Positions 32,706 to 55,233 of a DNA stretch of 64,000 nt are shown piece by piece; the first letter of the stretch is position 1; every line of letters starts with the position of its first letter. Position numbers and translations under genes: made by a program. The DNA is taken from contig OY762654.1 in the NCBI GenBank assembly GCA_963666205.1, forward strand, positions 2,752,001-2,816,000. Direction: 5' to 3'. The notes under the pieces are model-generated. The model did not search any database. It was not told the origin of the DNA and saw only the letters and a list, made by a program, of their open reading frames with translations. This stretch comes from Synergistales bacterium. GTDB taxonomy: Bacteria > Synergistota > Synergistia > Synergistales > JAFGMB01.

Positions 32706-33641
32706 ATGAAAATGCTCGTATCCACAAAGGATATGGACCGAAACGAATGGCTCAAGTGGAGGAAAAAAGGCATCGGCGGCAGCGATGCCTCAGCTGTGGC
32801 AGGAATATCCAGATGGAAGAGTCCTCTCGAAGTATATCTTGAGAAGACTGACCAGATACCATCAAGAGAAGCGGGTGAACCAGCATACTGGGGAACGGTT
32901 CTGGAAGACATAGTGGCAAGGGAGTTCACAAAAAGAACCGGTCTTTCAGTAAGAAAGAAGAATGCCATGTTCCAGCATGATAGTCACCCCTTCATGTTTG
33001 CAAATGTGGACAGGGAGGTCATAGGTTCAAACAAAGGTCTTGAATGCAAGACTGCTTCATCATGGAAGGAAAGCGAATGGAAAAATGATGATGTACCGCC
33101 AGAATATGTGTTGCAGTGCCAGCACTACATGGAGGTGATGGACTGGGATTCAATGTATCTTGCAGTGTTGATAGGCGGTCAGAAGTTTCTATGGAAGGAA
33201 GTGCCAAGGGACCAGGAACTCATAGATCTTCTAATTCATGCAGAAAGGGATTTCTGGAATCGGGTAGAGAGAAAGGATCCTCCACCCATAGAAGGACATC
33301 CAAAGGATAAGGACCTTCTCGATATCCTCTATCCGTCAGCACTAAGATATGACGAATCTGTTGAACTGCCGGAGGAAGCAGAACTGCTGGTAAAGGAATT
33401 CGAAGAAGCCGGCATCGACGAAAAGGATGCCAAGGCAAGAAAAGAATCTGCCGGTAATAAACTTAAAAGCCTGCTTGGAGAGAATCCTCTCGGCAGACTG
33501 GATACCCATATCGTCAAATGGGAGAACGTAATAAGCAGCAGACTGGATACACAGAAACTGAAGAAGGAAAAGCCGGAAGTATATTTCGATTACCTCAAGG
33601 AATCGGCTTACAGGAAATTCTCAATCAGGGAGGTGGCCTGA
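32706..33641 (+). CDS. YqaJ-like viral recombinase exonuclease (lambda-Exo family)
   Basis: WLKWRKKGIGGSD, FANVDR, LECKT and QCQHYM. Confidence 0.9.
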   Translation: MKMLVSTKDMDRNEWLKWRKKGIGGSDASAVAGISRWKSPLEVYLEKTDQIPSREAGEPAYWGTVLEDIVAREFTKRTGLSVRKKNAMFQHDSHPFMFANVDREVIGSNKGLECKTASSWKESEWKNDDVPPEYVLQCQHYMEVMDWDSMYLAVLIGGQKFLWKEVPRDQELIDLLIHAERDFWNRVERKDPPPIEGHPKDKDLLDILYPSALRYDESVELPEEAELLVKEFEEAGIDEKDAKARKESAGNKLKSLLGENPLGRLDTHIVKWENVISSRLDTQKLKKEKPEVYFDYLKESAYRKFSIREVA

Positions 33642-33642
33642 T

Positions 33643-34512
33643 TTGGCAGTATCAAAAGCAAATGAAACGGCAAAGAACCGTTTAAGGAACAGTAACCATT
33701 CTGGTAATGTACAGACTGTACGATCCGTACAGATAGAAAAGGGTGAACTGGCAACAGGCAGCGAAACATCAAAGGAGATTCAGCAGAACAAACCTTCAGG
33801 CACTTTATGGGAATACATCAATTCAAGGAAGGAGACCATATCCAAGGCACTTCCCAAACACATGACACCAGAAAGAATGGGCATGATAGCCTTCACCGAG
33901 ATAAGAAGGAATCCAAAATTATTGCAATGCACACCCCAGTCACTCTTTGGATCCATCATGCAGGCATCCCAGCTTGGTGTCGAGCCAGGTCCGCTGGGTC
34001 AATGCTATCTGGTACCCTTCTGGAACAAGAAAACATCCACCTATGATGTGCAGTTCATCCTTGGCTACAAGGGAATGATCGATCTTGCAAGAAGATCTGG
34101 AAACATAAAGTCCATCTATGCCCACGAAGTTAGAAACAATGACCAGTTCGAATACTCCTATGGTCTGAATCCTACACTTATCCATAAACCCTCTCTTAAG
34201 AACAGAGGAGATGTTACAGGGTTCTACGGTGTGGTTCATTTCAAAGATGGAGGTTACCAGTTTGAATTCATGTCCATCGATGAAGTGGAGCAGAGGAAGG
34301 AAAGGTCCAAGTCATCAGAGAACGGCCCCTGGGTAACAGACTATGAGGAGATGGGGAAGAAGACCATCCTTCGTCACATGTGGAAATACCTTCCAGTAAG
34401 TGTTGAGGTTATGAGACAGACTGCTCTTGACGAAACTGTTACAGACATCGAGAAACCAGATATCCCTCTTTCTGTCTATGATATCGACAGCAAAGAAGAA
34501 GCGGCCGCCTGA
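33643..34512 (+). CDS. recT: RecT single-strand annealing protein
   Basis: ALPKHMTPER, LGQCYLVPF, GYKGMIDLARRSG and PWVTDYEEMGKKT. Confidence 0.9.
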   Translation: MAVSKANETAKNRLRNSNHSGNVQTVRSVQIEKGELATGSETSKEIQQNKPSGTLWEYINSRKETISKALPKHMTPERMGMIAFTEIRRNPKLLQCTPQSLFGSIMQASQLGVEPGPLGQCYLVPFWNKKTSTYDVQFILGYKGMIDLARRSGNIKSIYAHEVRNNDQFEYSYGLNPTLIHKPSLKNRGDVTGFYGVVHFKDGGYQFEFMSIDEVEQRKERSKSSENGPWVTDYEEMGKKTILRHMWKYLPVSVEVMRQTALDETVTDIEKPDIPLSVYDIDSKEEAAA

Positions 34513-36001: not shown

Positions 36002-36204
36002 TCCCTAACATTTCCCAAAATTAAGAATATACCTTTTTTACCGGGACCATCGCTCTTAATCCAAAATATTTAGGGTTTCCCATTGAAATTATTTCAAAAT
36101 AGAAGAACCATGTATGAACTTTATTCCCTTGTTTTTAAATTTTACCTTTTGCGGTTCTTCATGAAACACCTCATTTTATAAAATCTTTTCCATTTTTTTA
36201 AGGT

Positions 36205-36281
36205 GCGCCGGTAGCTCAGCTGGATAGAGCGGCGGTCTACGGAACCGCAGGTCACGAGTTCGAATCTTGTCCGGCGCGCCA
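36205..36281 (+). tRNA. tRNA-Arg(ACG), copy 1, at the island A/B junction
   Basis: 77 nt; GCGCCGG/CCGGCGC acceptor stem, GCGGT-CTACGGA-ACCGC anticodon arm, TTCGAAT loop, encoded CCA. Confidence 0.95.
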
Positions 36282-36354
36282 TTTCTTCGAAATATTGGTA
36301 AGACTGGTTAGAATACATTCAGTAAAACATTAGAAGACCAGAGAAATTCCAGTA

Positions 36355-36380
36355 TACAATGGCGAGACCGCAGTCCTTGA
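36355..36380 (+). repeat. Island-end motif, island B left copy
   Basis: tacaatggcgagaccgcagtccttga; 25/26 identical to 45901-45926. Confidence 0.75.
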
Positions 36381-36416
36381 AATATGCCTCTCATCAATAT
36401 GATGGGAGGTTTTTTT

Positions 36417-37349
36417 ATGAATGTAGTACCACTTTCGAGATACGCAAAGCCAACATGGGAAGAAGCCCTTGAAGATTTCCTTAACCTTAAGGGAGCAGAG
36501 GGCAGAGCACCCAGAACCCTCACAGACTACCGCAAGCATGTCACACGATTTTTTACCAGATTCCCCGATGCATATGAGAATGAGAAGGAAGCCCGTAGCG
36601 CCCTCCTGAAGCATCTAGCTCAGGCAAAGACACCTTCTACCCATAACCTGAGACTTGAGTATCTCAGAGGCTTTTCCCGATGGCTCTGGGAGGAAGGGAT
36701 CTTCACTAATGATGTTACCTACAAGCTAAAGAAGCAAAAGAATCCCGGAAAGTTTATTCCTGTGGATAAGGATAGCCTTTTGTCGCTTCTTGGACTTCCA
36801 GATCTAGCTACCTATACAGGTTACAGGGATTACTGCCTGATCCTTTTTACCCTGGATACTGCAACTAGACCGGGTGAGGCTCTTAAGCTTATACCTTCAG
36901 ACTTCAACTTGAGGAGTCTTGAGGTCCACATCCCTTCTCTTGTGGCAAAGACGAGGATCTCAAGAACCATTCCTATATCAGGAGAAACGACTAAGTCTAT
37001 AAGGAAGTTACTGAGCGTTAGACATCCAGAATGGAAAGACAATGTACCCTTGTTTGCATCAAGTGATGGTCTATGTATGCTTGAAACATCATGGGGGAAG
37101 AGGATGAGGGGGTACAGTAAGAAACTTGGGGTAAAAATAACTCCATATATGCTTAGACATAGTTCTGCTACATTGTTTCTCCGTAATGGGGGATCAAGCT
37201 TCGCACTTCAGAGGATGATGGGTCATACCTCAATGGAGATGACCGAAAGGTATGTCCATCTTGTCCAAGACGATGTCAAACAGGAACATAAGAAGCATTC
37301 TGCTTTAAGCGGAATGTTTGAAGAGATTCACAGAAAGAGGAGATTATAA
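36417..37349 (+). CDS. Tyrosine integrase of island B
   Basis: DTATRPGEAL, AKTR, PYMLRH and MGHTSMEMTERY; GGAGG RBS; directly after the tRNA. Confidence 0.92.
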   Translation: MNVVPLSRYAKPTWEEALEDFLNLKGAEGRAPRTLTDYRKHVTRFFTRFPDAYENEKEARSALLKHLAQAKTPSTHNLRLEYLRGFSRWLWEEGIFTNDVTYKLKKQKNPGKFIPVDKDSLLSLLGLPDLATYTGYRDYCLILFTLDTATRPGEALKLIPSDFNLRSLEVHIPSLVAKTRISRTIPISGETTKSIRKLLSVRHPEWKDNVPLFASSDGLCMLETSWGKRMRGYSKKLGVKITPYMLRHSSATLFLRNGGSSFALQRMMGHTSMEMTERYVHLVQDDVKQEHKKHSALSGMFEEIHRKRRL

Positions 37350-37662
37350 GATATATATTTCGTTGGAAGGAAATGTTGTGATAAAAACGAAAAAAGTAAT
37401 ATATTAGTTTTGAATCAGATTTAATATTCTAAAGAGCTATCGATTTGTTCTTGACACAGGCATAAATTAATAGACAATAAGATAGAATTCATTATTTCCC
37501 ATTTATCTCCCATAGACTATCGGTTATCCTCGAATATTTACCCAGTTATCATAACTCTGTGTACCTAGCAAATAGAGTTGTTATGTCTGGTGTTAATAAT
37601 CGTCTTTCTATATGTAATCTTTTTTTTAGTAGGAATAATTTACTTTCATTGGAGGTGTTTTT

Positions 37663-39777
37663 ATGGAAATTAAAGAAAATGATTATCTGAATTGTCGATC
37701 AACTATTGTTAATCGAATTGAAGATACTATTCAATCAATGCCAGAAAAATGCGAAGATGAATTTAAGGCTTTTCCTTTTTTAATGTCCAAATTGTTTTCT
37801 AATGGAGTGTTGGATGAAACACTTTTCGTCCTAGATAAGAAATCAGACCAAGGGATTGATTTTTACGCAAAATATGCTGGTTCTTATGAAATCTTCCAGT
37901 GTAAATTTGCAGATTTAGAAAGGATAATCACATCAGATAAACCTCTTTCTTATGACCAAACAGGAGTAAGAGATCTTGAAAATGCTTATCATTACCTAAT
38001 AGGTGATCAGTCCGTAAAAACTGGAAATAAGGATGTAGAAAAGGTTAGGGCTCAGATAATGGCAGAAGATTGTAAAGAAATATCTTTTAATCTTTGTGTT
38101 TTTGGTAAACTTACAGATGATGCCAGAGAAAAATTCCAATTGCTTCAAAAAGAATATGGAACTGAATATATCGATTTTAACCTCTTTGAATGGCAAGATA
38201 TAGCAAAAGAACTATTTCTGCAATATGCTTCCCCAAAGGAAACATCATTTACATTTCGTGTGAAGGATAACCAAATTCTTCACAAACAAGAGTATTGTTA
38301 TTTTCTATGTAATGTAAAAGACTTTTATGATGTTTTTCAAAAGTTTGGATGGTCCCTTTTTGATCTGAATGTTCGTTCTGAATTAAGCGGTTCTCCAATT
38401 AATAATGAAATTATTAAATCTCTAAAACATGACAAAAGCATGAAATTCTTCCACCATCTCAATAATGGAATCCTTATCTTTTGCAATAACTTCAGTTTTA
38501 CCAAAAGACCTAAGCCTAAGACAAATGGCAATGGAGATGAAATTGAGTCAATTGAAATAAAGAACTTTCAGATCATCAATGGATGTCAAACAGTCTTAGC
38601 AATTAACAGAGCATTTGAAGAAATATGTCATGATAAATTCAAATTTGATCGATTTGACAAAGATTGTTTGGTTCAAGTAAAAGTCATTTCTAAAACACCT
38701 GGTACGAAAGAAATTATTGATGATGTAATTATTTCAACCAATAATCAAAACCCCATGAAAAAAAGGAACCTTAAATCGAATAAACAAGAACAAAGAAAAA
38801 TCAAAGCATATTTTGATAACCTAACTCCTAGATGGTTCTACCAACGCAAAGACGGTGAATTTAATAGTTTTAAAAGTATGCCACATGTGGGTACATTCCA
38901 ATTCAGAATTAGTGACTATAAGGAAGGTAATATTTCGAGGTGTATTGATAATAATGATTTAGCCAAAACTTGGTTATGTTTTATTGGTTTTCCAGATAAG
39001 AGCATGATGACAAGTGATTATTTCATTAAAGATACACTTTATTCAGACATTTTCCAGTCCAAGCCAACTCAATATTTGTGGGATGAGTTTTTAAATCCTG
39101 ATACTGATTTCCAGAGAAAGGATAATTATTTTGATGTTGGGAAATTGCCAATTGTAGAAGAATACTTACTGTCTTATGTAATATGGAATTTCATCAAGTC
39201 TTATTCTCTTTCTCCGAGAGATAATAAAAAAGAGGCTTTGAACAGAGGAGTAAGAAAAGGAGTATTGCACAGAGCAACAACAGAAGATCGGATAATAGAA
39301 TCAGTTGAAGATCAATCTCAATATTTAAAAGATGACGACGAATACGTCTTAAACAATATTATTAACAATAGTAAAGAAGTATTTTTATCCATGTATGCCT
39401 TTGTATTAGTAAGAAAATATGGTTATAACCCTGAAATAGCTAAAAAACTAATCCGAAGCAAGTATTTAGGAGGAATACAAGGATTTGCTCAAGGAAAAAT
39501 ATTTTCACAAGAAATATCAGAACTGGGGAATAATTTATTAGTGAATATCTATGAATTCTTGCGTTTTGTTTTAGGACAGGTATATACCGAAATTAAATCT
39601 GAATACCTTGTTCACCCTAGAAGAAAATACTATTTATCACAACAGAGGTTTATTACAAAATTCAAAAAAAAGATCCTTGAACTCAATAATCAAGAAGGAT
39701 TTAAAATGTATTCTCAAAACTGGAAGACTATGGGCCTGAATTTCTTTGAAAGTATGCCTGATGAGTTAGAATTATGA
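37663..39777 (+). CDS. AIPR family protein with N-terminal restriction-endonuclease-like domain
   Basis: DQGIDF...FQCKF; LFDLNVR, FHHLNNGI, QIINGCQT and STNNQNP. Confidence 0.85.
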   Translation: MEIKENDYLNCRSTIVNRIEDTIQSMPEKCEDEFKAFPFLMSKLFSNGVLDETLFVLDKKSDQGIDFYAKYAGSYEIFQCKFADLERIITSDKPLSYDQTGVRDLENAYHYLIGDQSVKTGNKDVEKVRAQIMAEDCKEISFNLCVFGKLTDDAREKFQLLQKEYGTEYIDFNLFEWQDIAKELFLQYASPKETSFTFRVKDNQILHKQEYCYFLCNVKDFYDVFQKFGWSLFDLNVRSELSGSPINNEIIKSLKHDKSMKFFHHLNNGILIFCNNFSFTKRPKPKTNGNGDEIESIEIKNFQIINGCQTVLAINRAFEEICHDKFKFDRFDKDCLVQVKVISKTPGTKEIIDDVIISTNNQNPMKKRNLKSNKQEQRKIKAYFDNLTPRWFYQRKDGEFNSFKSMPHVGTFQFRISDYKEGNISRCIDNNDLAKTWLCFIGFPDKSMMTSDYFIKDTLYSDIFQSKPTQYLWDEFLNPDTDFQRKDNYFDVGKLPIVEEYLLSYVIWNFIKSYSLSPRDNKKEALNRGVRKGVLHRATTEDRIIESVEDQSQYLKDDDEYVLNNIINNSKEVFLSMYAFVLVRKYGYNPEIAKKLIRSKYLGGIQGFAQGKIFSQEISELGNNLLVNIYEFLRFVLGQVYTEIKSEYLVHPRRKYYLSQQRFITKFKKKILELNNQEGFKMYSQNWKTMGLNFFESMPDELEL

Positions 39778-39814
39778 ATTCAATTAGTGAATTCCACATT
39801 TTTTTATAGCAAGA

Positions 39815-39857
39815 GAAAAAACAGGCCAAGGAAAATGAATCCTTGGCCTGTTTTTTC
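39815..39857 (+). terminator. Bidirectional terminator
   Basis: gaaaaaacaggccaagga...tccttggcctgttttttc. Confidence 0.75.
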
Positions 39858-39973
39858 TTTCATTATTCGAGGCAAGATTGATAAATAAAAAAAGTCGTTA
39901 TATAATATAAATGCAAAATACGCATCCTTTCTGCAAATAATAGACCTAAAATAGCTTATAAGATGTTATAGGG

Positions 39974-41341
39974 GTGATAAATATGTTGATTTCATTTGTA
40001 GTTTCGAATTTTCGATCCATAAAGGATATGCAGGAATTCTCATTGTTGACATCCAAAATTGGCCAAAAAGAGGGCTTCTTAAATAGAAACTTTATGTTTT
40101 GTGATGGAGAAAAGGAGCCTCTTGGCAAATTAAGTGGTTTTTATGGAGCGAATGCCTCCGGAAAAAGTAACTTTATTAAAGCTTTGAATTTTATGAAACA
40201 TCTTGTTTTGACTTCTCATCGAAATCTGAAAAGCAAAGATCTGCCTTATGAGCCATATGTTCTTGATGAAGAACACATGAATACTCCTTCTGAATTTGAA
40301 GTGACATTTCTAAATAATTCAACCAAATATATTTATGGATTTTCTTTAAATAAAGAAAGGGTTATTGAGGAATGGGCTTATTTCTATCCTTCTGGAAGAA
40401 AAAGTCTTCTGTTCTTAAGAGAAATAGGAGAAGATAGCCAGTATAACTATCATTTTGGATCTTTGTTGAAAGGTCAGAAATCTGTAATTGTCCAAACAAC
40501 GAATAAGGAATCATTGTTCTTATCTAAAGCTTCTGACATAGAGGAATGTCCTGACCATTTGAAGTCCATCTTTTCTTGGTTTAGTGATACTCTTCGCATT
40601 TTATCAATGGATATAGACCCTTTTACATATGCTGTTGAAATGTGGAAAACAAAAGAGGATTGTCATAAATTTATTCTTAAATTGCTTTCTCTTGCTGATA
40701 CTGGAGTAAAAGGAGTAGAAATTGAAGAAAGATCAGTTCTAGATCAAATACCAGAATTACCTTTTGCCAAGATCCAAAAACTTTTCCAATTATGCAAAGA
40801 AGAATTTGAACTAGATCCAAATACTGATCTTAATGACAAAGTCACTATAGTAAAAGCTTTCCATGATTTTCGCAAGAACAATGGTTTGATTGAAAGCAAA
40901 GCATTTCAATTTACCGAAGAATCTGCAGGAACTAAACGTTTCTTTGGTTTTTCTGCAATTCTTTTAGATATTATTAGTAATGAAAGAGTTATTTTTATCG
41001 ACGAGATTGAATCGAGCATGCATCCATTATTGGTTGTTCGCTTTTTAGAATCATTTCTTGATTTAAGCCAAGAGAAATTGTGCCAATTGATTTTTACAAC
41101 TCACAACACCCATTTATTAAATTCAGATGTTTTGCTTAGAGACCAGATTTGGTTTGTTGAAAAAGATAAGGAAATGGCTAGCCACATTTATTCATTGCTC
41201 GAATATACGCCTAGAAAAGGTGAATATCTAGAAAAATGGTATTTGTTAGGTAAATATGGAGCTATACCTTTTTTACAAAACTTCGAAGATATAGAAGACC
41301 ATGATTCTTTCTATGGGGAATGCCTTGATGTCGAATCTTAA
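39974..41341 (+). CDS. rloA: RloA-like AAA_21/ABC ATPase
   Basis: NFRSI, YGANASGKSN, ESAGTKR, IDEIESSMHP, QLIFTTH and YLLGKYGAIP. Confidence 0.85.
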   Translation: MINMLISFVVSNFRSIKDMQEFSLLTSKIGQKEGFLNRNFMFCDGEKEPLGKLSGFYGANASGKSNFIKALNFMKHLVLTSHRNLKSKDLPYEPYVLDEEHMNTPSEFEVTFLNNSTKYIYGFSLNKERVIEEWAYFYPSGRKSLLFLREIGEDSQYNYHFGSLLKGQKSVIVQTTNKESLFLSKASDIEECPDHLKSIFSWFSDTLRILSMDIDPFTYAVEMWKTKEDCHKFILKLLSLADTGVKGVEIEERSVLDQIPELPFAKIQKLFQLCKEEFELDPNTDLNDKVTIVKAFHDFRKNNGLIESKAFQFTEESAGTKRFFGFSAILLDIISNERVIFIDEIESSMHPLLVVRFLESFLDLSQEKLCQLIFTTHNTHLLNSDVLLRDQIWFVEKDKEMASHIYSLLEYTPRKGEYLEKWYLLGKYGAIPFLQNFEDIEDHDSFYGECLDVES

Positions 41342-41930
41342 GGACAGAAAAAGGAGAAGTGTAAGGCGTCCCGGAAATTGGAAGGCTAAAAGAACGGTCC
41401 TAATTCTTTGTGGAGGAGAAAAAACAGAAAAGTTTTATTTTGAAAACATTAGAAAGAAAACTGAGGTTGAGAATACCCAAATTGATATTAAACAGTTTGG
41501 TGCTAAATCTCCTTTAGGGATAGTAAATAGGGCAATCAGATGTTTAAAGATGTGGCCTTATGATACGTGTTGGTGTGTTTTTGATAAAGATGATTTTTCA
41601 GATTATGAACAAGCCATATCAAAAGCAAAACGAAACAGAATTTACTGTGCTTTTTCTAAGCCATGTTTTGAAGTCTGGTTTCTATTACATTTTGAAAAGT
41701 GTTGGCTTAAATTAACAACGTGCGAAGATGTAATAACTCGTCTGAAAAGTCATTTACCAGATTATAAAAAAAACAACTTAGCTATGTTTGATAAACTTCG
41801 CAAGAATCTAGATATTGCAAAAGATAACGCTGGGAACCTGCTTAAAGTGAATATGGAAGATCATTTATTAGATTACCCTATTACGAATGTTTTTGAGTTG
41901 TTAGATCATTGGAGTCAATCCTTCAAATGA
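41328..41930 (+). CDS. rloB: RloB family protein
   Basis: LILCGGEKTEKFYF, WCVFDKD and SKPCFEVWFLLHF; overlaps the rloA stop. Confidence 0.85.
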   Translation: MSNLKDRKRRSVRRPGNWKAKRTVLILCGGEKTEKFYFENIRKKTEVENTQIDIKQFGAKSPLGIVNRAIRCLKMWPYDTCWCVFDKDDFSDYEQAISKAKRNRIYCAFSKPCFEVWFLLHFEKCWLKLTTCEDVITRLKSHLPDYKKNNLAMFDKLRKNLDIAKDNAGNLLKVNMEDHLLDYPITNVFELLDHWSQSFK

Positions 41931-42181
41931 TGTGTAATATTTTTTTCTATGTAAATAAGCTAATATTTTTTTCCATGCTTTTGTCGATAGTATCTATCTC
42001 TTTTCCATTCATCCTAGTTGATAGAGCTAATTAACTTTAATACTTCCTTATAAGGTTTCGTTGATCATTGAAATCATTGGATTTCTTTTCTCAGAAATCC
42101 CGTATTTGTTGTTCAGGATAAAAAGTATGTTTATCCCAAGTTCGATATGCTGAACTAATCATAATAATAATTTTTTACGAA

Positions 42182-42496
42182 TCATGCTTTATTCCATAGT
42201 GTGACTTTTTCATGGTACAAGATAAAAAATTCGTTACATGCTTCCCTGAGTGGATATTCACAGTATTTGACCGCAAATTCAGGCACAGTATGGATCTTAG
42301 GCCCTGCTTTCTTTGCAACATTACAGGCCAGTGGGTACAAGTCCGGGTCCTGAAGAACCTTCTCAAACATGTATGTCATTACTATCCTTGAGTCTGCCTT
42401 GTTTTGTCTTCCCCTTTTTGAGTTCGGGTGAATATAAAGAATATTCCACAGGAGGTGAAGCACTTCTGTTATACGATCAGGGCTTGGATCTTCCAT
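42182..42496 (-). CDS. Hypothetical protein
   Basis: Follows the TerS-like gene by 8 nt on the same strand. Confidence 0.5.
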   Translation of the reverse strand: MEDPSPDRITEVLHLLWNILYIHPNSKRGRQNKADSRIVMTYMFEKVLQDPDLYPLACNVAKKAGPKIHTVPEFAVKYCEYPLREACNEFFILYHEKVTLWNKA

Positions 42497-42504
42497 CCGT
42501 TAAC

Positions 42505-42984
42505 TTATCCTTGTGACGACGAAAAGCCGGCAAGAAGATCTTCGACCTGCTGGTTATCAATTCCCTTGCACATATCTTCGGTTACTGTTTCCCTGTTCCT
42601 TATAAGCTGATCCCTTACTATCTCTTCAGGAGTCATGGGACCAGGGTTGGAAGAGGGTATCCGGTCGATTCCCACACTTTTTAGAATCTCAAAAGCTATT
42701 TTTACCCGGAAAGGGTTCTCCGGATCAGACAATGCTTCTTCCAGGCTTTTGATTGAAGATCCGATAAGAGTGGAAAGTCTTTCCTTGTGGGATTGCCATA
42801 TTTCAGAACGTTGTTTATTGAGTTCCGCTATGAAATAAGGATTCTGATTTACCCATATACTCACAGTCTGACGGGCTATATGGATCTTTTCCGCTACTTC
42901 TGTAAGTGTATGCCCTTCCAGGATAAGGGAAACGGCTTCAAGCTGTTTATCTGATAAATGTCGGGTTTCGACCGGATTTGTCAT
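42505..42984 (-). CDS. HTH protein resembling terminase small subunits (phBC6A51-like HTH)
   Basis: LSDKQLEAV...EVAEKIHIARQTVSIW...YFIAEL...RVKIAFEIL; AGGAGG RBS. Confidence 0.6.
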   Translation of the reverse strand: MTNPVETRHLSDKQLEAVSLILEGHTLTEVAEKIHIARQTVSIWVNQNPYFIAELNKQRSEIWQSHKERLSTLIGSSIKSLEEALSDPENPFRVKIAFEILKSVGIDRIPSSNPGPMTPEEIVRDQLIRNRETVTEDMCKGIDNQQVEDLLAGFSSSQG

Positions 42985-43002
42985 TCCTAAACCTCCTATT
43001 TA

Positions 43003-43224
43003 TTAATATCCCAGATAATTATTTACTACTTTCTTAAACTTGCTTTCTGCACTTGCAATATTTTTTAGAGAATCAAAAAGTTTCTGTCTTTCTTCGGGTT
43101 CCAAGATAGAGATATTCATAAGAGACTGAATTTCCTCATTTATCTGAGTAATGTGTGTTTTAATAGCTGATTTATGATCTTGTGCTTTCGCGCATAATTC
43201 TTGGGAAACTTTCATTTTCCACAC
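43003..43224 (-). CDS. Small helical hypothetical protein
   Basis: AAGGAG RBS; in operon with the TerS-like gene. Confidence 0.55.
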   Translation of the reverse strand: MWKMKVSQELCAKAQDHKSAIKTHITQINEEIQSLMNISILEPEERQKLFDSLKNIASAESKFKKVVNNYLGY

Positions 43225-43416
43225 TCCTTTTTGAAAATTCCCTCTAAGGGACCCAATTTTCTTATGCTGTTTGGGGCCCCCGGATAGAGGGTAGACCCGA
43301 TACGGGGTGTTACATGGTGGTGTATCTCTGTGAACAAAGTCATAGACTATTTATTCCATTCTGTAATACGTGATACGTCATATAAATACCATATGTAATT
43401 CGGGGTCCTTAAGAGA

Positions 43417-43442
43417 GTATCTGGTGTATCTGGTGTATCTGG
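43417..43442. repeat. 9-bp tandem iterons (gtatctggt, about 3 copies) at the PrimPol 3' end
   Basis: gtatctggt-gtatctggt-gtatctgg, with a related ggtgtatct near 43319. Confidence 0.7.
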
Positions 43443-43443
43443 C

Positions 43444-45156
43444 TTACCATAGTTCTGTGTCAAGGAGATATTCTTCCTTTAATCTCTGTAGCATCCCAGG
43501 TTTAGACTTGTAGTATCTTCTTTGGTATTTTTTCCCTTGAAATGTTTTTTGAATAACACAGGTTTCAAAACCTTCAAGTCTTAGCCTTTTGATAATCTCA
43601 TCCTTGTCGTATTTCTTTTCGTTACCCACAAAGACCCTCTGAAAGAATTCATTCAAAATAATTGCAATTGAGCCATTGCTTTCCCAATAGAGGGGGAAAG
43701 GGGCGCGGTTTGAATCAAAGATGTTTTCAATGATCCATTTTTCATCCTTCTTGTTATCACGCTTTGAAAAAGGATCTTCCCAATTGATTGGGTCCCTATA
43801 TTTTAGGTATTCGCAAAGTTGGTCCATTATTATGTCTTCCATATTTACTACTTCTACAACAACTTGGGGCTTAAACAGGATCTCAAGTACCCGTCTCCAT
43901 TTAGCGTTTGTGTAATAGGGTATTGAGTGTTGAACCTGGCTTAAGATCTTTGCTTCTATGCTTTTAAAGCTATACAAGCTTTTTGCCGTCCCAAGTCTCA
44001 CATTTCTGCCGTTTTTAAGTTCCATTACATATTCCGAGTCCTGGGTTCTTCCGTATTGAAATACTCTTTTCACAGGGAGTTCTATGCTTTGAGAGAACTT
44101 TTCAAGAGGATCTTCTGAGGCGTACATCTTTTGGAATTCCTCAATGTCCTCTGGGGAGAACTTGCCTGAGCTTTTTATGAACTCAAGTTTCTGTTGGTTC
44201 TGATCTATTGCTCTGTTTTCATATCCTTCTTGCACAGAAGTAAGTGCTTTTTCAACAGTTATCTGTCCGTAGGTCTTTGCTCCGTGCTTTTCGTCCCATT
44301 TTTTACGATAAAGGCCGGATTGTCTGAACAGGTTATCTATTCTGTACTGGTCTCGGCTAGTCCAGAAGGCAAGATAATCACAGAGGGCCATATCTGCCTC
44401 AGATTGAGAAGGATATCCAGTTATATCTCCGTTCCATAGGCTTGTGAAGGCTCTTCCGGTCTTATCGTTGTTCATGGCCTTATCAACAAGTTCTTTATCA
44501 TCAAGGGAGTTGGGCAGGGTAGGAGTAGTGTGTATTTGTTTAATACACTTGGCCTCATCTTCTTTATTTTCGGGAAAAATCTCTTGATACATTGAAGTAA
44601 GTTCATCCTGTCTTGATTCGATGGTGCAAGGATAACCAGGAAGGGTATTTCCTGTAAGAGCAAAGAACCTTGCATGGTCATATATCTCTATCCCTATTTT
44701 GTCATCCTTGCATCTTTTATCTGATGGCTTCTGGGCTTTGACTATTACATGAAGTCCTTTCCCACTTTGGCTAATCTCAGTCCAGGAATTAAACCTTTCA
44801 ATATATTGCCTTGCTGGTTCCTCAATTTCATTTGTTCCAGGATCTCTGTAGCCGTCAAAATCAATTCCACAGAATGGGTCATTCTCTGTGAAGACAAAGC
44901 CGATCCCATCAACTTTCATTTTGATGTCTTTGTAAGTTTCGTTTGTAGGTGAGATCTCCCCTTGAGCAAGAATCCTTGTTACTTCTTCAAAGGAAGACCA
45001 TGTTGAAGGGTTAGTTGTACTTGCGTTTTTACCGTTGGTTCCGACAGGTATTTTAGTGTATTTCTCTTTTTCAGGTTTCCAAACCTTTCTCCACAGGACC
45101 CATTGATTGTACTTCTTCATTTCTTCTGGGAAGTTATTGATAAGATTATTGGTCAT
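43444..45156 (-). CDS. Primase-polymerase (NrS-1-like PrimPol with helical-bundle domain)
   Basis: QWVLW...KIP, TWSSF, GIGFV...GIDFD, EISQSGKGLH, IEIYD..RFFALTG, SEADMALC and LFRQSGL. Confidence 0.85.
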   Translation of the reverse strand: MTNNLINNFPEEMKKYNQWVLWRKVWKPEKEKYTKIPVGTNGKNASTTNPSTWSSFEEVTRILAQGEISPTNETYKDIKMKVDGIGFVFTENDPFCGIDFDGYRDPGTNEIEEPARQYIERFNSWTEISQSGKGLHVIVKAQKPSDKRCKDDKIGIEIYDHARFFALTGNTLPGYPCTIESRQDELTSMYQEIFPENKEDEAKCIKQIHTTPTLPNSLDDKELVDKAMNNDKTGRAFTSLWNGDITGYPSQSEADMALCDYLAFWTSRDQYRIDNLFRQSGLYRKKWDEKHGAKTYGQITVEKALTSVQEGYENRAIDQNQQKLEFIKSSGKFSPEDIEEFQKMYASEDPLEKFSQSIELPVKRVFQYGRTQDSEYVMELKNGRNVRLGTAKSLYSFKSIEAKILSQVQHSIPYYTNAKWRRVLEILFKPQVVVEVVNMEDIIMDQLCEYLKYRDPINWEDPFSKRDNKKDEKWIIENIFDSNRAPFPLYWESNGSIAIILNEFFQRVFVGNEKKYDKDEIIKRLRLEGFETCVIQKTFQGKKYQRRYYKSKPGMLQRLKEEYLLDTELW

Positions 45157-45248
45157 TTTAGTATCTCCTCCAACGTAATGATTTAGGGCTTAAGTGGAGG
45201 AATATGCTATAATTATTTTGGGAGTAAAAATAACATAGTCCACAGTTC

Positions 45249-45283
45249 AAAACCGTCTGTAAGCCCCGAGCAGACGGTTTTTT
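45249..45283. terminator. Bidirectional hairpin in the PrimPol leader
   Basis: aaaaccgtctg...cagacggtttttt. Confidence 0.65.
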
Positions 45284-45501
45284 CATGCACTTCTTTCTGA
45301 TAACCAGGTCTCATATTTTGAAATAAACTCACGTCCTTTCATGATCCCTGCATTTTCAAATGCATAGGCCAGTTTATAGGCTTCCTTTTGTTTCCCGTGA
45401 AAGACTTTCCACAGGTACCCATGACTTACACCTATTCGCTTTGCCAATTTCCTAAAGGATAGATTCTCGCTTTCCATTGCTTCTGTAATAGGGTTTTCCA
45501 T
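45283..45501 (-). CDS. XRE/Cro-like HTH regulator
   Basis: SFRKLAKRIGVSHGYLWKV; GGAGG RBS. Confidence 0.75.
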   Translation of the reverse strand: MENPITEAMESENLSFRKLAKRIGVSHGYLWKVFHGKQKEAYKLAYAFENAGIMKGREFISKYETWLSERSA

Positions 45502-45550
45502 TACATTTCAACCTCCAATGTCCGTAAAAACCTAACATTACACAATAGTT

Positions 45551-45579
45551 ATTATAATTAATAAAGCAGGAGTTGTCAA
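45551..45579 (-). promoter_or_regulatory. Consensus sigma70 promoter for the HTH-PrimPol operon
   Basis: TTGACA-17 nt-TATAAT on the minus strand. Confidence 0.75.
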
Positions 45580-45900
45580 CATAAAAAACAGGTAACCATC
45601 AACACATAACATGCTCTCTAAAATGTAAAAGCGAGGTTGACATATGTAAAGTATTGATTTACAAAACAGATAAATGTCAGGGAAAAAATGGTATCTCAAA
45701 GTTTACAAGGGGGGGTAAATTGTCTATAATAATTACAGGAAGGCTAATGCTTCCGAACAAGTGAGGGATTAAATAACTTCAGTATTTTGCAAGGGCTTAG
45801 CTAAACTTCGTAGAGCATTATCTTTCCAATAACATCAAGTGTGTACAATATCGTTGCAGGTGGTGTTTTGCAAGGGGATCTGTTGGTGAAAAAAACTGGA

Positions 45901-45926
45901 TACATTGGCGAGACCGCAGTCCTTGA
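45901..45926 (+). repeat. Island-end motif, island B right copy
   Basis: tacattggcgagaccgcagtccttga. Confidence 0.75.
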
Positions 45927-46005
45927 CAATCAAATAAGATGAGAATCATATTTTGAGCCATGCGATAAAGCCGGCCATAGCCTCACCCACCGCCATTTTT
46001 AAGGT

Positions 46006-46082
46006 GCGCCGGTAGCTCAGCTGGATAGAGCGGCGGTCTACGGAACCGCAGGTCACGAGTTCGAATCTTGTCCGGCGCGCCA
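46006..46082 (+). tRNA. tRNA-Arg(ACG), copy 2, at the island B/C junction
   Basis: Identical to 36205-36281. Confidence 0.95.
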
Positions 46083-46232
46083 TTTCTTGTAAGTCGTTGC
46101 AAACACCGCTCTATCAGCCATAACTGGTGCAGTTAAGTGAGCTCGGTATCCTTCGGAGACCGTCGCTCTTGAGCACCGGCGACCGTGCTTCAAAAGTTAC
46201 CTCTCATTCACTCAGAATGGGAGGTTTTTTTT

Positions 46233-47186
46233 ATGGGTAAGAGTAACGTGGTTTTCTGTAACTCATGGGGTAACTCTTCTTACCAGTGGGAGGATCTGCT
46301 GGAGGAGTTTCTCATATTCAAGTCAGCTGAGGGGAAGTCAGACAGAACTGTTCTTGACTACCGGAATCATGTGACCAGATTCTTCCGTGCATATCCGGAT
46401 GTGCTGTGCCATCCATCCTCACTCAAAAGGTCTATCCTCGCATACCTCAAGAGTGCCAAGACACCCACTACCTATAATTTGAGACTCCAGAACCTGCGAG
46501 TATTCTTCGACTGGTTGATGGAAGAGGGGATAGCATCGGAAAATCCCTTAAGAAGGTTCAAGAAGAAGAGGAATCCGGGGAAATTTGTCCCAGTGAATGA
46601 GGAGATCCTCCAATCACTGCTGTCCCTTCCGGACAAAAAGACCTTCTCAGGGTTGAGGGATTACTGTCTCATCCTCTTCACCCTCGATACTGCTACTAGA
46701 CCGTGGGAAGCACTACAGCTGTTGCCATCCAACTGCAACCCCAGAAGTCTTGAGGTCACCATCCCTTCCCATATATCGAAGACTAGGGTATCCAGAACAG
46801 TCTATATCTCTGCCAGCACGTCCAAACAGCTGAGGAGACTATTAAGGTTAAGACATCCCCAGTGGAAGGAGGATGTGACCATATTCTGCTCCAGAGACGG
46901 TAAAGTTATGAAAGAGACATCATGGGGTCAGCAGATGAGAAGGTATAGCTTAAAACTGGGTTACAAGGTGACTCCGTACATGTTGCGCCACAGTTCTGCC
47001 ACCCTGTTCCTGCGGAACGGGGGGAACGCGGTGGCATTACAGAGGATGATGGGTCATACCTCCATGGAGATGACGGAAAGATATGTACATCTAGTGGAAG
47101 GGGACATAAGGGATCAGCATGCGAAGTTCTCTGCGTTAAAAAGAGTTGTAGAAGAGACTAACCGTATCCATAAGATAAAGGGATGA
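46233..47186 (+). CDS. Tyrosine integrase of island C
   Basis: DTATRPWEAL, SKTR, PYMLRH and MGHTSMEMTERY; GGAGG RBS. Confidence 0.92.
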   Translation: MGKSNVVFCNSWGNSSYQWEDLLEEFLIFKSAEGKSDRTVLDYRNHVTRFFRAYPDVLCHPSSLKRSILAYLKSAKTPTTYNLRLQNLRVFFDWLMEEGIASENPLRRFKKKRNPGKFVPVNEEILQSLLSLPDKKTFSGLRDYCLILFTLDTATRPWEALQLLPSNCNPRSLEVTIPSHISKTRVSRTVYISASTSKQLRRLLRLRHPQWKEDVTIFCSRDGKVMKETSWGQQMRRYSLKLGYKVTPYMLRHSSATLFLRNGGNAVALQRMMGHTSMEMTERYVHLVEGDIRDQHAKFSALKRVVEETNRIHKIKG

Positions 47187-47237
47187 AGTTTGAAAATTAG
47201 CGGGGTTTACATCCGAATAGGTTCATATATAACTAAT

Positions 47238-47273
47238 GGGGGGTGGGTTTTATACCCTCCCCCCCTCTTTTTT
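47238..47273 (+). terminator. G/C-tract terminator after the integrase
   Basis: gggggggtggg...ccctccccccc followed by a T-run. Confidence 0.6.
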
Positions 47274-47539
47274 CTGAAACTTAAATTTTAAGAATCTGTC
47301 AAGACATTAGATTTGTTGTGATATTAAGTCATCGGGATGTTTCTGCAACTATATAACATAGTAAGGGTTTCATATTTACGCGTATTTTTAAATTCGTCAG
47401 TAAAAGTATAGATTTTCGAAAAGACTATGTAATATGAAATTTGCTATTTCCATTTTGAAAAGAAAGGGTTAAAGTGGTTGCCCGAAATATTTATTTCTAA
47501 ATTACAGAGAACTAATTTAGTGTATAATATTTCTGGAGG

Positions 47540-48079
47540 TTGATAATGATGTTAGAGGGAAAATTGATTTGTAAAATCATTTTGGACTTCTTAGGTGAAG
47601 ATGGTATTACGGAATATGACGAAAGATATGACATCCGTCTTATGGTTCAGAAGCTTATTTACATGTTCCAAGAGATTGGTCAAATCCCAGGGTATTCTTT
47701 TAGTTGGTATTTGGCTGGACCATATTCTAACCAATTGACAAAAACTATGTTCAATGATGTCGTTCCTCAAGTAGAATCTTTTATCAAATCTGCCGATGAA
47801 CTTAGTCTTACTGACGAAGGTACTGATCTTTTTCGTAAACTCCATAGTTTTTTTGACCATGTTGATGATGAAACATTACGTTCTAAAAAATTGAGAAAAT
47901 TTCAGTGGTACGAATTACTTGCTTCAAGTCACTATATTTATAAGACAACTCACAATATCGAGAGAGATATGTTAATTAAGCGTTTAGGAATCTCTAAAAA
48001 AGCGTATACGCGCTCTCAGATTGAGTTTGTGGTTGATCAATATTTCTCGATAAGAAGTTCTGGGGATATTGTTAATTAA
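47540..48079 (+). CDS. YwgA/DUF4065 (Panacea)-like protein
   Basis: RLMVQKLIY...YSFSWYLAGPYSNQL...ELLASSHY. Confidence 0.65.
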   Translation: MIMMLEGKLICKIILDFLGEDGITEYDERYDIRLMVQKLIYMFQEIGQIPGYSFSWYLAGPYSNQLTKTMFNDVVPQVESFIKSADELSLTDEGTDLFRKLHSFFDHVDDETLRSKKLRKFQWYELLASSHYIYKTTHNIERDMLIKRLGISKKAYTRSQIEFVVDQYFSIRSSGDIVN

Positions 48080-48087
48080 TCCTTCGC

Positions 48088-49707
48088 ATGTCCAATTCCG
48101 CTAAGAGAAATATTAATGTTTATGACAATATTTATGGATACATTCACCTCGAGAAATCTCGTTATCAAAAGATTCTTGAACACCCTCTATTTCTTCGACT
48201 GCATAATATAAAACAAATGGGTTATTGCAACTTTGTGTTTCCCGATGCGATTCACACAAGATATTCTCATTCCCTAGGAGTCTATTACTTAGTTAAAAAA
48301 ATGATAGAAGCGCAAGAAAGAAAATTTATAAATCTTAGCTGTAGGTTTTATGCAGACTTTCCTAATGAAAAAGATGATTTATTGTTAAGTGCTTTATTGC
48401 ATGATATTGGTCATTTACCTCTTTCTCATACAGTCGAAGCAGCATTAGAGAGATATGAGAAGTTTTCGTACGAGAAAATAAAAGATGAAATGGAAGATGA
48501 AACTCAAAAAAAACAGATCGCGGAAGGTTTAGCAAATAATTTTTATTCTAAACCAGAATTTAAGCGTAATGGTACGAAGTTGCACGAACAACTAGGAGAA
48601 GATGTGCTACTTAATACATCTTTACATGATCTTCTTGTTGACGAACTTGAAGTAGAACCTTTGGAAATCTCTAACCGATTTAAAGGGGTTCTCGGTGATG
48701 ATTTAGATTCTTCCCCTAAAAATGGTAAGGAAGAAGATAAAGGTATGATAGGGTTAAGGCATAGTAGAAATTTCCTTCATTCCCAACTGGATGCAGACCG
48801 CATCGAATATCTACTTAGAGATTCCACCTTTACCGGAGTTAAGTCAGGAGCATTTGATTTTGAAAAACTTCTTGCTGAGATTAGATATACTGAAACTGCT
48901 AAATATGGTGTCCATATTGATGCATTAAGAGTATTAGAGCAATTCTTCATGGCAAGATTTGCAGCATATGCGCAAATCGTATTTCATAAACGTGTTGAAG
49001 GTTATGATTTGTTGGCACAAGATTTTTATTTTTCCTTGTTAAGGGATAGGGATAATCCAGAGATTAACCATGATGGAAAAGGCTACCCTAAGGTATTTAG
49101 TTATCCAGAAATTAAAGATCAATTAATGAAAGATGAAAAATGGTTTTACAGTTTTACCGATAGCTATTTCGAGCAACTGATTTATGAAGTTTTAGATACA
49201 AAGGTAAAGTTGGGTCAAAAAATTTTTTCCTATGCAAAAATGTTGCAAGAAAGAAAACCATTTAAGTGTGTTTATGAAGAGCAAAAAATGTGTACTCCTG
49301 ATCAATGGGAAAACTGGTCAATGGAAGATTCTCTTATTACATGTGTTGCTGAAAATGTTGAAGAATTTATGAAAATAGCTAGAGTTTCTAAAGATTCGTT
49401 CCTCCTAAAATTGATTCCTAATGATAGATATTCTTCTGACATGCAGTATTATTGGGATCTTTTTTATTTTGGTAAAGCTCTTTCGATATTTGATAGGGAT
49501 TCGAAGTATGATCAACTATACGCTTTTAAAACAGGGAAACCACCAGAACATTTAAAGAATTGTGAAAGCACTTTTTTAAAGTTAGATCTAGAAAAACTTT
49601 ACGTTCAAAGGATATTCGCTACTGATTTGGATATGGCAAAAAGATTAGAGGATGGACTTAAGAGGTTTGCTGACACAAAAAACAAAAAATACGATAATCA
49701 TTGTTAG
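48088..49707 (+). CDS. SAMHD1/YwfO-like HD phosphohydrolase (putative dNTP triphosphohydrolase)
   Basis: RLHNIKQMG, HTRYSHSLG, LLHDIGH.PLSH, HEQ, LDADRIEYLLRD and VFHK. Confidence 0.85.
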   Translation: MSNSAKRNINVYDNIYGYIHLEKSRYQKILEHPLFLRLHNIKQMGYCNFVFPDAIHTRYSHSLGVYYLVKKMIEAQERKFINLSCRFYADFPNEKDDLLLSALLHDIGHLPLSHTVEAALERYEKFSYEKIKDEMEDETQKKQIAEGLANNFYSKPEFKRNGTKLHEQLGEDVLLNTSLHDLLVDELEVEPLEISNRFKGVLGDDLDSSPKNGKEEDKGMIGLRHSRNFLHSQLDADRIEYLLRDSTFTGVKSGAFDFEKLLAEIRYTETAKYGVHIDALRVLEQFFMARFAAYAQIVFHKRVEGYDLLAQDFYFSLLRDRDNPEINHDGKGYPKVFSYPEIKDQLMKDEKWFYSFTDSYFEQLIYEVLDTKVKLGQKIFSYAKMLQERKPFKCVYEEQKMCTPDQWENWSMEDSLITCVAENVEEFMKIARVSKDSFLLKLIPNDRYSSDMQYYWDLFYFGKALSIFDRDSKYDQLYAFKTGKPPEHLKNCESTFLKLDLEKLYVQRIFATDLDMAKRLEDGLKRFADTKNKKYDNHC

Positions 49708-49742
49708 AAATTAATTCTGATTTTGCTTACACGCATAGAAAC

Positions 49743-50297
49743 TTAACCAATGACCCTATATAAGGTCGACCGACTTATCCCCAACATCTCTGCGATCTCA
49801 TTGGGGTTATTATTCCTATCTGCCATCAATTTCTTCGCCATGGCAACCTGCTCTGCAGATAACTTAGGTTTCCTACCACCTTTCCTACCTCTAGCACGTG
49901 CTGACTTTAATCCTGCCATGGTTCTTTCCCTTATCAGGTTACGCTCAAACTCTGCAAGGGAACCGAATATATGGAATATAAGCTTTCCACCGTTAGTAGT
50001 GGTGTCAAACCCCTCTTGTATGCTCTTAAAGCCTATACCATGTTCCTCAAGGGTATTAACCACATCTATGAGGTGTCTGAGGGATCTGCCCAGTCTATCT
50101 AGTCTCCAGACAACAAAAGTATCCCCTTCACGCAGATGTTCCATTGCTTCCTTCAGTTGAACCCTTTCTGTACGTGCTCCGCTTGCTGTCTCATGGAATA
50201 CCTTCTCACATCCTGCTTGCTTCAATGCATCGATCTGCAGATCCAGTGACTGTTCCTCTGTAGATACCCTTGCGTAACCTATTAACATGTTCTGCAC
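49743..50297 (-). CDS. Serine recombinase (resolvase/invertase)
   Basis: IGYARVST, VWRLDRLGRS, AEFER, GGRKPK and C-terminal HTH. Confidence 0.92.
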   Translation of the reverse strand: MQNMLIGYARVSTEEQSLDLQIDALKQAGCEKVFHETASGARTERVQLKEAMEHLREGDTFVVWRLDRLGRSLRHLIDVVNTLEEHGIGFKSIQEGFDTTTNGGKLIFHIFGSLAEFERNLIRERTMAGLKSARARGRKGGRKPKLSAEQVAMAKKLMADRNNNPNEIAEMLGISRSTLYRVIG

Positions 50298-50304
50298 CTC
50301 CCCA

Positions 50305-50456
50305 GTTGTGTTATCCGAACTGTATCATAAAGGATATATAGATGGCAAATCAGGACTATGATAATAACACAGTGTTATGGGATAGTATCTACTGAAGGAA
50401 ACGGATGTCTATGAAGGAGTAGAGAAGTGTCCCACAAACGACCGTTAGTGATACGG
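50305..50456. promoter_or_regulatory. Putative res site upstream of the resolvase
   Basis: Imperfect palindromes such as tgtcccacaaacgaccgttagtgatac, plus tgtatcataaa and ttatgggata. Confidence 0.45.
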
Positions 50457-50671
50457 AACTCTATAAATATCAGGAGGTAAAATCAGAGTTCAATAAATCT
50501 CTTATCCATCAATGAAATTAGACGATTCTGTGGATGAAAAATCTACCTTATCTATATCCAGATCTGGAAATATTTCCCAAAAGTATAATTCTGCATGTAA
50601 TGTTAACTAATTTTCGTAGAGTAAGTTGTATTTACTGTCCATCTCTCCAAAACATTTCTAAAAATAATTCC

Positions 50672-50726: not shown

Positions 50727-50772
50727 GGAATAACGTTAAGAGATAACAAAATAAAGATGGGAGAGTTGTTTT

Positions 50773-55212: not shown

Positions 55213-55233
55213 TTCTTGTTTGGCGGTGAGAAC

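Follow-up and report, generated by a model that had tools for sequence, protein, structure and literature searches.

The stretch of DNA analysed here, a window of 64,000 nucleotides (G000:C1:2752001-2816000) from the genome of an Acetomicrobium-like bacterium (Synergistota) that is available as a single 2.95-Mb contig and scored as 100% complete, raises the question of how integrated islands come to be separated by complete tRNA-Arg(ACG) genes together with sequence from upstream of these genes. From sequence comparison, the locus is probably a tandem array of three islands in tRNA-Arg(ACG), termed Z, A, and B in their order along the forward strand, in which Z and A carry the whole tRNA-Arg plus upstream operon sequence and the crossover takes place in the Arg anticodon loop.

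Two complete tRNA-Arg(ACG) genes of 77 nt were called in the window by ARAGORN (36205-36281 and 46006-46082), and both are held by an exact direct repeat of 93 nt (36195-36287 and 45996-46088), for a 32-nt piece of which 0.00 occurrences are expected by chance. The upstream flank common to both copies consists of cca, a T-run, and aaggt, with seven T in copy 1 (T7) and five T in copy 2 (T5); downstream, both are flanked by tttctt. The original prediction that whole tRNA-Arg genes with upstream flank stand at both internal junctions is thus confirmed by gene calls and repeat alike, the common flanks that it gave as ccattttt(tt)aaggt and tttctt are read in the sequence, and the partial tRNA copy that it placed at 61303 matches tRNA-Arg positions 31-73 at 86% identity (61303-61345). 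The tRNA-derived features of the window are the following:

36191-36204, forward strand: host-like upstream flank at the right end of Z (tRNA-Ser CCA plus spacer, with T7 rather than T5)
36205-36281, forward strand: tRNA-Arg(ACG) copy 1, complete, at the junction of Z and A (ARAGORN, repeat)
45981-45995, forward strand: last 15 nt of tRNA-Ser(GCT), at the right end of A
45996-46005, forward strand: Ser-Arg spacer TTTTTAAGGT, the same as in the native locus
46006-46082, forward strand: tRNA-Arg(ACG) copy 2, complete, at the junction of A and B (ARAGORN, repeat)
61303-61345, forward strand: remnant of the 3' portion of tRNA-Arg, beginning at position 31 and decayed (86% identity, lower beyond the T-loop)

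A search of the whole genome revealed a third identical copy of 94 nt (G000:C1:2751045-2751138), situated 956 bases (0.9 kb) before the window:

G000:C1:2751055-2751131: tRNA-Arg(ACG) copy 0, native, identical

At this native locus, ARAGORN calls a tRNA-Ser(GCT) ending with CCTCACCCACCGCCA, followed by TTTTTAAGGT and the tRNA-Arg(ACG) gene; the 3' end of the Ser gene reads ...ggttcgaatccctcacccaccgcca and passes via tttttaaggt into the Arg gene. Its final 15 nt are exactly cctcacccaccgcca, the sequence that is also found directly 5' of the copy 2 block (45981-45995), such that the latter constitutes the true 3' end of the host tRNA-Ser, comprising four of the five nt of the 3' strand of the T-stem, the 3' strand of the acceptor, the discriminator G, and CCA. 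The host tRNA with this 3' end that was predicted to lie upstream of the window, before tRNA-Arg, therefore exists and matches exactly. The block common to the native locus and the junction of A and B amounts to 108 nt (15 + 10 + 77 + 6), and the Ser-Arg tandem is the best match among the loci listed for 40 relatives searched. A match to the promoter consensus (TTGACA-17-TAGAAT) is situated 5' of the native tRNA-Ser and another (TTGACA-18-CATATT at 45923-45952, likewise a consensus match only) 5' of copy 2, and no such match was found on the forward strand 5' of copy 1. Of 45 anticodon species represented by the 52 tRNA genes of the genome, 41 are single-copy, and the three Arg(ACG) genes all lie within the array; the predicted rise in tRNA dosage holds as a gene number, that of a normally single-copy tRNA-Arg(ACG) gene having been tripled. 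Concerning the other tRNA genes, a second tRNA-Glu(TTC) call (G000:C1:2871445-2871534) is 90 nt long, compared with 76 nt in the other copy; it could be a false tRNA derived from a fragment, or else mark a further island junction.

The array can thus be read as tRNA-Ser and Arg copy 0, island Z (~37 kb), Arg copy 1, island A (9.7 kb), the 15 nt of Ser with spacer and Arg copy 2, island B (15.2 kb), the decayed Arg 3' part, and a terminator. Three integrases and four tRNA-derived repeats in series correspond to the tandem-array definition of the Islander database:

Window positions 1-36190, forward strand: island Z, ~37 kb, beginning upstream of the window at G000:C1:2751138, right behind copy 0
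36288-45980, forward strand: island A, 9.7 kb
46089-61302, forward strand: island B, 15.2 kb
L002, 1848-2783: integrase of Z, a tyrosine recombinase of 311 aa (PF00589, E 9.9e-24)
36384-37349, forward strand: integrase of A, a tyrosine recombinase (PF00589, E 2.4e-25)
46185-47186, forward strand: integrase of B, a tyrosine recombinase of 333 aa (PF00589, E 1.1e-24)

An intact integrase follows each full tRNA-Arg on the same strand, about 100-260 nt from the 3' end of the tRNA; the three integrases are pairwise 54-58% identical and carry only a SAM-like domain at the N-terminus. The direct tRNA repeats at the island ends all have the same orientation and comprise exact 93 nt for Z and A and 43 nt at 86% identity for B.

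Under any site-specific scheme, the sequence to the left of a crossover derives from the island on the left and the sequence to its right from the island on the right; the unusual parts of the junctions consequently belong to the right ends of Z and A, and any site-specific route requires that the attachment site on the element (attP) of the left-hand island at each internal junction carried the whole block. The right end of Z comprises the 5' half of Arg and 13 nt of host-operon sequence (only CCA of Ser), that of A the 5' half of Arg, the spacer, and 15 nt of Ser (25 nt of upstream flank). Full 77-nt tRNA genes are called by ARAGORN at the far ends of both islands, and a displaced fragment in the sense of Islander is found in B only, where 61303-61345 represents the classical form and closes the array. 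The claim that A and B carry a whole tRNA hence stands for A but not for B, which has a classical half site, and it has to be extended to Z. No residual 5' half of Arg was detected in the 60 nt before the remnant of B (61243-61302) by local alignment against shuffles, neither with Arg positions 1-30 (p = 0.79) nor with the 15 nt of Ser, spacer, and Arg 1-30 (p = 0.63) as query; an apparent GCGCC..TA..TCA match there was no better than shuffles and was dropped. Behind the remnant lies the following element:

61368-61393, forward strand: GC-rich hairpin with T-run (read by eye), probably the native terminator of the Ser-Arg operon

Host flank conserved with a genome of the same genus (G001) begins at 61473 (87% identity).

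This genome, G001, has a similar arrangement of tRNA-Ser, tRNA-Arg, and integrase with an island of ~20 kb, whose right end shows Ser positions 14-95, the spacer, and Arg positions 1-57 before it decays, i.e., 92 nt of upstream host-operon sequence including most of tRNA-Ser. At all four positions at which the Ser genes of G001 and of the genome studied here differ, this terminal copy has the form of G001; it runs on into an integrase-less remnant of another island. In two other genomes of the bacterial family in which the site is readable (G002 and G004), arm-like remnants are situated behind tRNA-Arg. Scanning genome contigs with the integrase alignment yielded 11 loci, of which only the record of G001 was close, whereas the eight loci from viral contigs reached just 26-27% identity; the primase-polymerase of island A, used for a scan of viral contigs, found no match there. 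The 80 loci obtained from metagenome contigs were mostly short, one of them (L102) having the same Ser-Arg-integrase arrangement without the far end and another (L099) beginning inside the tRNA. In a relative (G164; L052, 13278-13579), Ser(GCT) is followed by two adjoining full Arg(ACG) genes with no island between them, possibly the trace of a whole-tRNA island that has since been lost, or else the result of ordinary duplication.

Concerning the position of the crossover, the original prediction offered a Ser-like tRNA as an alternative to a whole tRNA in attP. Worked out further, this explanation would have A and the island of G001 recombine in the 3' part of tRNA-Ser and carry the spacer and the whole tRNA-Arg in order to restore the operon. 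The beginnings of the blocks of A (inside tRNA-Ser, at 45981) and of G001 (Ser 14) speak for this, as does the conservation of the Ser-Arg tandem in the loci listed for the 40 relatives, and an element that cuts in Ser would have to re-supply the promoter-distal Arg gene. However, the block of Z contains only the CCA of Ser and that of B starts in the Arg anticodon stem; the left boundaries at Ser 14, Ser 81, and CCA have no common Ser position except CCA, and integrases that are 51-58% identical and share the same arm motifs are unlikely to target different tRNAs.

A survey of the integrase family, which is present in 42 of 261 genomes of the order (E <= 1e-40), bears on the same point. Forty loci were fetched, the sole criterion being room on the contig, and 21 of them exhibited a direct repeat overlapping the tRNA beside the integrase. 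Thirteen loci had no repeat in the fetched stretch, one was cut by the contig end (L089), one was degenerate (L086), and two (L042/L043) comprised one tRNA-Leu pair 57 kb apart of 3' type. In the remaining two, repeats without a called tRNA were found (L046, 713-823 and 16841-16951, 111 nt; L077, 575-765 and 13210-13400, 191 nt), so the family also uses targets other than tRNA genes. Among the 21 islands, the repeat in most cases (14) combines the upstream region with the 5' part of the tRNA and stops at positions 36-67; four have the 3' part as their repeat, from position 3, 7, 10, or 22 onwards, and three are whole-tRNA islands (L054 Gln, -5 to +75; L078 Thr, -2 to 76; L081 Gln, -1 to +31). 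The islands of the first kind are:

5'-fragment-type islands: L044, L045, L049, L050, L053, L055, L058, L072, L073, L074, L080, L084, L085, L088

At the far end of each of these islands, the remaining fragment of the host tRNA promoter is directed inwards.

All 21 blocks and the block of B have in common only tRNA positions of about 31-36, i.e., the end of the anticodon stem and the beginning of the loop of the integrase-adjacent tRNA. A 3'-type island of another bacterial family on the same Ser-Arg operon (L056) has a repeat of Arg positions 10-77 with no Ser sequence. Finally, the T7 variant has remained at the right end of Z, whereas the native junction has T5, which places the exchange to the right of the T-run. 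Taken together, the overlap of the blocks, the CCA-only block of Z, the T7/T5 difference, and L056 indicate the Arg anticodon loop (~31-36) as the most likely exchange point, and a crossover in tRNA-Ser appears very unlikely. An operon-restoring arrangement as in phage HP1 is likewise not found, given the differing block starts (Ser 14, Ser 81, CCA, Arg 31) and the lack of Ser in L056.

With the crossover placed in the Arg anticodon loop, the integrases of the array would act like the rest of their family, excised Z and A would carry an attP made up of the whole tRNA-Arg and its upstream flank, and after integration of such an attP, either end would have a complete tRNA. Accordingly, A, Z, and the island of G001 would possess attachment sites in which the whole tRNA-Arg is preceded by 13 to 92 nt resembling the upstream sequence of the host, host DNA having presumably been added on the 5' side of the core to a classical attP as in B.

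The arms of the islands provide an indication of how this might have happened. In A and B, a motif, GAGACCGYNGYTC, recurs on either arm, and in Z it is present on the arm next to the integrase:

36043-36055, forward strand: weak copy of the arm motif (2 mismatches) near the right end of Z, 135 nt before the block
36364-36376, forward strand: integrase-side copy of the arm motif in A, GAGACCGCAGTCC, separated from the block by 76 nt and resembling the tRNA's own anticodon-stem half site
45910-45922, forward strand: right-end copy of the arm motif in A, GAGACCGCAGTCC, with 58 nt between it and the block
46156-46168, forward strand: integrase-side copy of the arm motif in B, GAGACCGTCGCTC, separated from the block by 67 nt
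61224-61236, forward strand: right-end copy of the arm motif in B, GAGACCGTCGTTC, with 66 nt between it and the remnant

With at most one mismatch, the motif has six matches in the window versus 0.22 expected, all of them in attachment regions, a comparison that is circular inasmuch as the motif was derived from four of the six, only the two matches in the tRNA being independent. These two are the tRNA's own D-stem/anticodon-stem on the opposite strand, so the motif looks like an extra copy of the core half-site; such extra copies would suit integrases with only a SAM-like N-terminal domain. The distance between motif and block is 67 nt (Z), 76 nt (A), 67 nt (B), and 68 nt (island of G001) on the integrase side, and 58 nt (A), 66 nt (B), and 64 nt (island of G001) on the far side, the latter distance being held though the blocks begin at Ser 81, Arg 31, and Ser 14, respectively. 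Because of this constancy, A and the island of G001 look like a B-like site into which 59 and 126 nt, respectively, of host sequence have been placed at the joint of arm and core, from which we infer that the extra 5' half and flank are captured host DNA. Capture might have taken place by aberrant excision or by break repair at the right-end site templated by the left copy, and the host-specific Ser variants of G001 fit a local origin of the flank. Integrase-mediated capture at a tRNA-Ser look-alike site was considered but is speculative, the boundaries exhibiting no convincing core-like sequence or microhomology. A comparison of the right arms of Z, A, B, and the island of G001 for homology was also abandoned, as only the short motif aligns; the right arms of B and of the island of G001 share a terminal TACTTCA, which may be functional or due to chance.

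The similarity of the flanks to the host can also be explained without an incoming attP of this kind: the whole-tRNA junctions may have been made or kept in place by homologous recombination, gene conversion, or break repair (by RecA or by the YqaJ/RecT pair that Z encodes), the array growing and shrinking through homology instead of through its integrases. Under this explanation, it is readily understood that the tRNA copies are 100% identical over 93-108 nt versus about 55% in the integrases, that the flank in G001 follows its own host at four of four positions, and that both terminal remnants keep identity on the 5' side and lose it on the 3' side. On the other hand, homology cannot by itself make the first joint of an island arm to Ser or spacer, the T5/T7 difference demonstrates that the copies are not fully homogenised, and each island possesses an intact integrase and paired arm motifs. 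Furthermore, whole-tRNA repeats occur in other genera with boundaries at -1, -2, and -5, as expected of an attP carried between hosts. We therefore consider formation or maintenance in place unlikely, and the carriage of a whole-tRNA attP with exchange in the Arg anticodon loop is preferred.

Some support for the assembly comes from Logan contigs of two runs of one sample, which is possibly the source of the genome, at low depth (~3-6). The end of Z continues into the 5' end of the tRNA (record 3, 36004-36224, 5 differences), the 3' end of the tRNA into island A (record 4, 36264-36439), the right end of A into the Ser fragment and across the spacer (record 6, 36629-46010), and the 3' end of the tRNA into island B (record 7, 46063-46346). 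An assembly artefact, by which islands of different strains in a mixed sample had been chained via the tRNA repeat, might be suspected from the low depth and the breaking of the contigs in the repeat, from the five differences of record 3 at the end of Z, and from loose contig ends which reveal other arm variants at the same tRNA in the sample. Yet the genome is one contig scored as 100% complete, each island has its own arms and each arm is joined to the tRNA in contigs, record 6 connects the arm of A to Ser fragment, spacer, and tRNA start whatever the order of the islands, and G001 has the same kind of junction independently, such that an artefact is highly improbable.

The loose ends, at 36211, 36293, 46085, and 46094, continue into other arm-like sequences; at 36211 (tRNA position 7) unrelated sequence joins, and another loose end resembles the integrase-side arm of Z. 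They suggest other island variants at the same tRNA and a turnover at strain level, each being a single low-depth contig. A contig apparently joining 36284 to 46073 was discarded as a sign of excision, since its short side of 22 letters lies within the repeat and is uninformative.

Besides the circularity of the motif count, several points weigh against a whole-tRNA attP with exchange in the Arg anticodon loop. The crossover is deduced from the limits of repeats, and within the Acetomicrobium clade only a left limit is set (position 31, from B). The flank is 100% host-like, as would be expected both if it had been generated in place and if an incoming attP had carried it, and the far-side motif of Z is weak and 135 nt distant from the block instead of about 60 nt. 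The terminal copy of G001 loses identity in the T-loop (position 57), which is not fully explained. In the four other genomes of the bacterial family, a clean empty site was not encountered (that of G001 is occupied), nor was a free attP circle in the contig scans or the contigs of the public runs. Moreover, every public contig breaks inside the repeat, such that the linkage between islands is not proven by reads and the order of the islands depends on the single-contig assembly alone.

In a tree of 26 integrases (quick maximum likelihood, LG+G4, SH-aLRT support only, midpoint root for drawing), the four Acetomicrobium integrases constitute one clade (96), whose sister group (98) comprises one 3'-type Ser island and two Gln islands of whole-tRNA type. 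The whole-tRNA type is found in five of the seven islands of this larger clade versus one of 19 outside of it. Polarity flips between close relatives, L056 (3' type) and L055 (5' type) being sisters from one genome and L057 and L059 (3' type) falling into one clade with L049 and L080 (5' type), which suggests that the family has switched repeatedly between 3' and 5' type and in tRNA orientation. As regards strand, tRNA and integrase agree in the Acetomicrobium islands, L078, and L043; in the other 20, they are on opposite strands. It is therefore conceivable, although we regard it as a tentative proposal and doubtful as it stands, that one clade of Synergistota integrases uses a complete, functional tRNA gene as attachment site, that this whole-tRNA state bridges the switches in fragment type and in orientation, and that such islands are missed by fragment-based finders. 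If true, each integration would duplicate a single-copy tRNA and leave two full sites, and one tRNA copy would be redundant, so that an island may lose either half.

The organization of the array is in general similar to that of classical anticodon-loop ("A" site) islands, in which the integrase is situated beside the tRNA, a tRNA repeat is found at both ends, and the tRNA is restored on the promoter side. B fits this pattern fully with its displaced 3' fragment from position 31, whereas in Z and A the far-end repeat is a complete tRNA with 13-25 nt of upstream operon sequence. Sublocation classes of tRNA attachment sites were reportedly set out by Williams in 2002.

In the Islander paper, 3919 islands are reported, 3760 with 3' fragments and 159 with 5' fragments, together with 125 arrays of at least two and four of at least three islands. 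As in the tandem arrays that Islander and a preprint on tycheposons describe, several islands here follow one another at a single tRNA, have an integrase and a repeat apiece, and carry defence or metabolic cargo. According to these sources, incoming elements push older ones further in at one tRNA, and in the tycheposons of Prochlorococcus repeated integration at one tRNA leaves partial tRNAs. Tycheposons are characterized by particular families of tyrosine recombinases and replication modules. The junctions described in these sources contain partial tRNAs, whereas here two of three internal or terminal junctions hold a whole, identical tRNA. The proposed "self-extending landing pad" is not specific to whole tRNAs, as classical tandem arrays also regenerate a usable site. 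Tandem landing pads are hence already established, and it is the whole-tRNA junction which constitutes the unusual and under-reported part: the pipeline of Islander rejects BLAST matches falling in a full-length tRNA gene, and whole-tRNA islands go uncounted for this reason. Islander-type finders would thus under-count such arrays and extra tRNA genes be read as ordinary paralogues. No description of a whole tRNA in attP as a trait of an integrase family was found in searches of open-access texts.

Concerning the 5'-fragment islands in Islander's count, 14 of the 21 surveyed relatives equally carry the promoter and the 5' part of the tRNA, which implies that this integrase family extends identity 5' of the anticodon loop; the islands of the window differ in that identity is extended on both sides and the tRNA shares the strand of the integrase, as opposed to 20 of the 21 surveyed islands. 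With its mostly rare 5'-fragment type and its changes of polarity, the family would be a good system for studying what fixes the direction of tRNA restoration. A comparable case is phage HP1 of Haemophilus influenzae, which has tRNA-Leu as target. As in HP1, the putative attP identity in the array is much longer than the core and includes a complete tRNA, but the extra identity here is situated upstream of the putative crossover and restores nothing. The long identity between attP and the attachment site of the host (attB) in HP1 takes in a portion of a tRNA operon, and by its additional sequence, which is downstream of the crossover, the operon is restored. The array indicates that island-host identity can also be extended on that side of the crossover on which there is nothing to restore. 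The array moreover gains several complete sites usable by integrases or homologous recombination, and its perfect repeats of 93-108 nt facilitate the loss or exchange of the defence islands Z and A.

A hairpin with T-run precedes every integrase of the clade, its 3' arm being the GGGAGG ribosome-binding site and ending just before the start codon:

36386-36410, forward strand: hairpin with T-run pairing the GGGAGG ribosome-binding site, just before the likely start codon of integrase A
46199-46225: hairpin pairing the ribosome-binding site of integrase B

The same structure is found at L002 1814-1843 and in G001 (L038, ~10240-10265, minus strand). It could stop transcription from the strong tRNA promoter and also mask translation of the integrase.

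Island Z contains a gene for a DUF927 primase-like protein, Hma-type defence genes, a second integrase fragment, and a YqaJ/RecT pair. The defence genes form a helicase-methylase-ATPase set (8124-19149) with HmaC, HmaB, and a PbeA/HmaA-like protein as best PADLOC matches, within which a DUF7680 gene is situated. The integrase fragment of 211 aa (7153-7788) suggests that Z is composite. The YqaJ-like exonuclease and the RecT annealing protein are encoded near the right end (32706-34512) and could drive recombination between the 93-108-nt tRNA repeats. Island A encodes an AbiU-like AIPR protein and an AbiLi/AbiLii pair (AAA_21 plus RloB) at 37663-41930, an HTH protein, and an NrS-1-type primase-polymerase-like protein (PF22763; 43444-45156, minus strand), and is with this cargo a small defence island with its own primase-polymerase-like gene. 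Besides the integrase, island B contains genes for an HD protein, a resolvase, a GntR regulator, two TRAP transporter sets, a nitrilase, and an epimerase. An exact direct repeat of 300 nt within B (54730-55029 and 57156-57455) spans the starts of two HbpS-like genes with identical Pfam scores (54748-55212 and 57174-57638), which suggests that a recent duplication took place within B, next to the two TRAP transporter sets.

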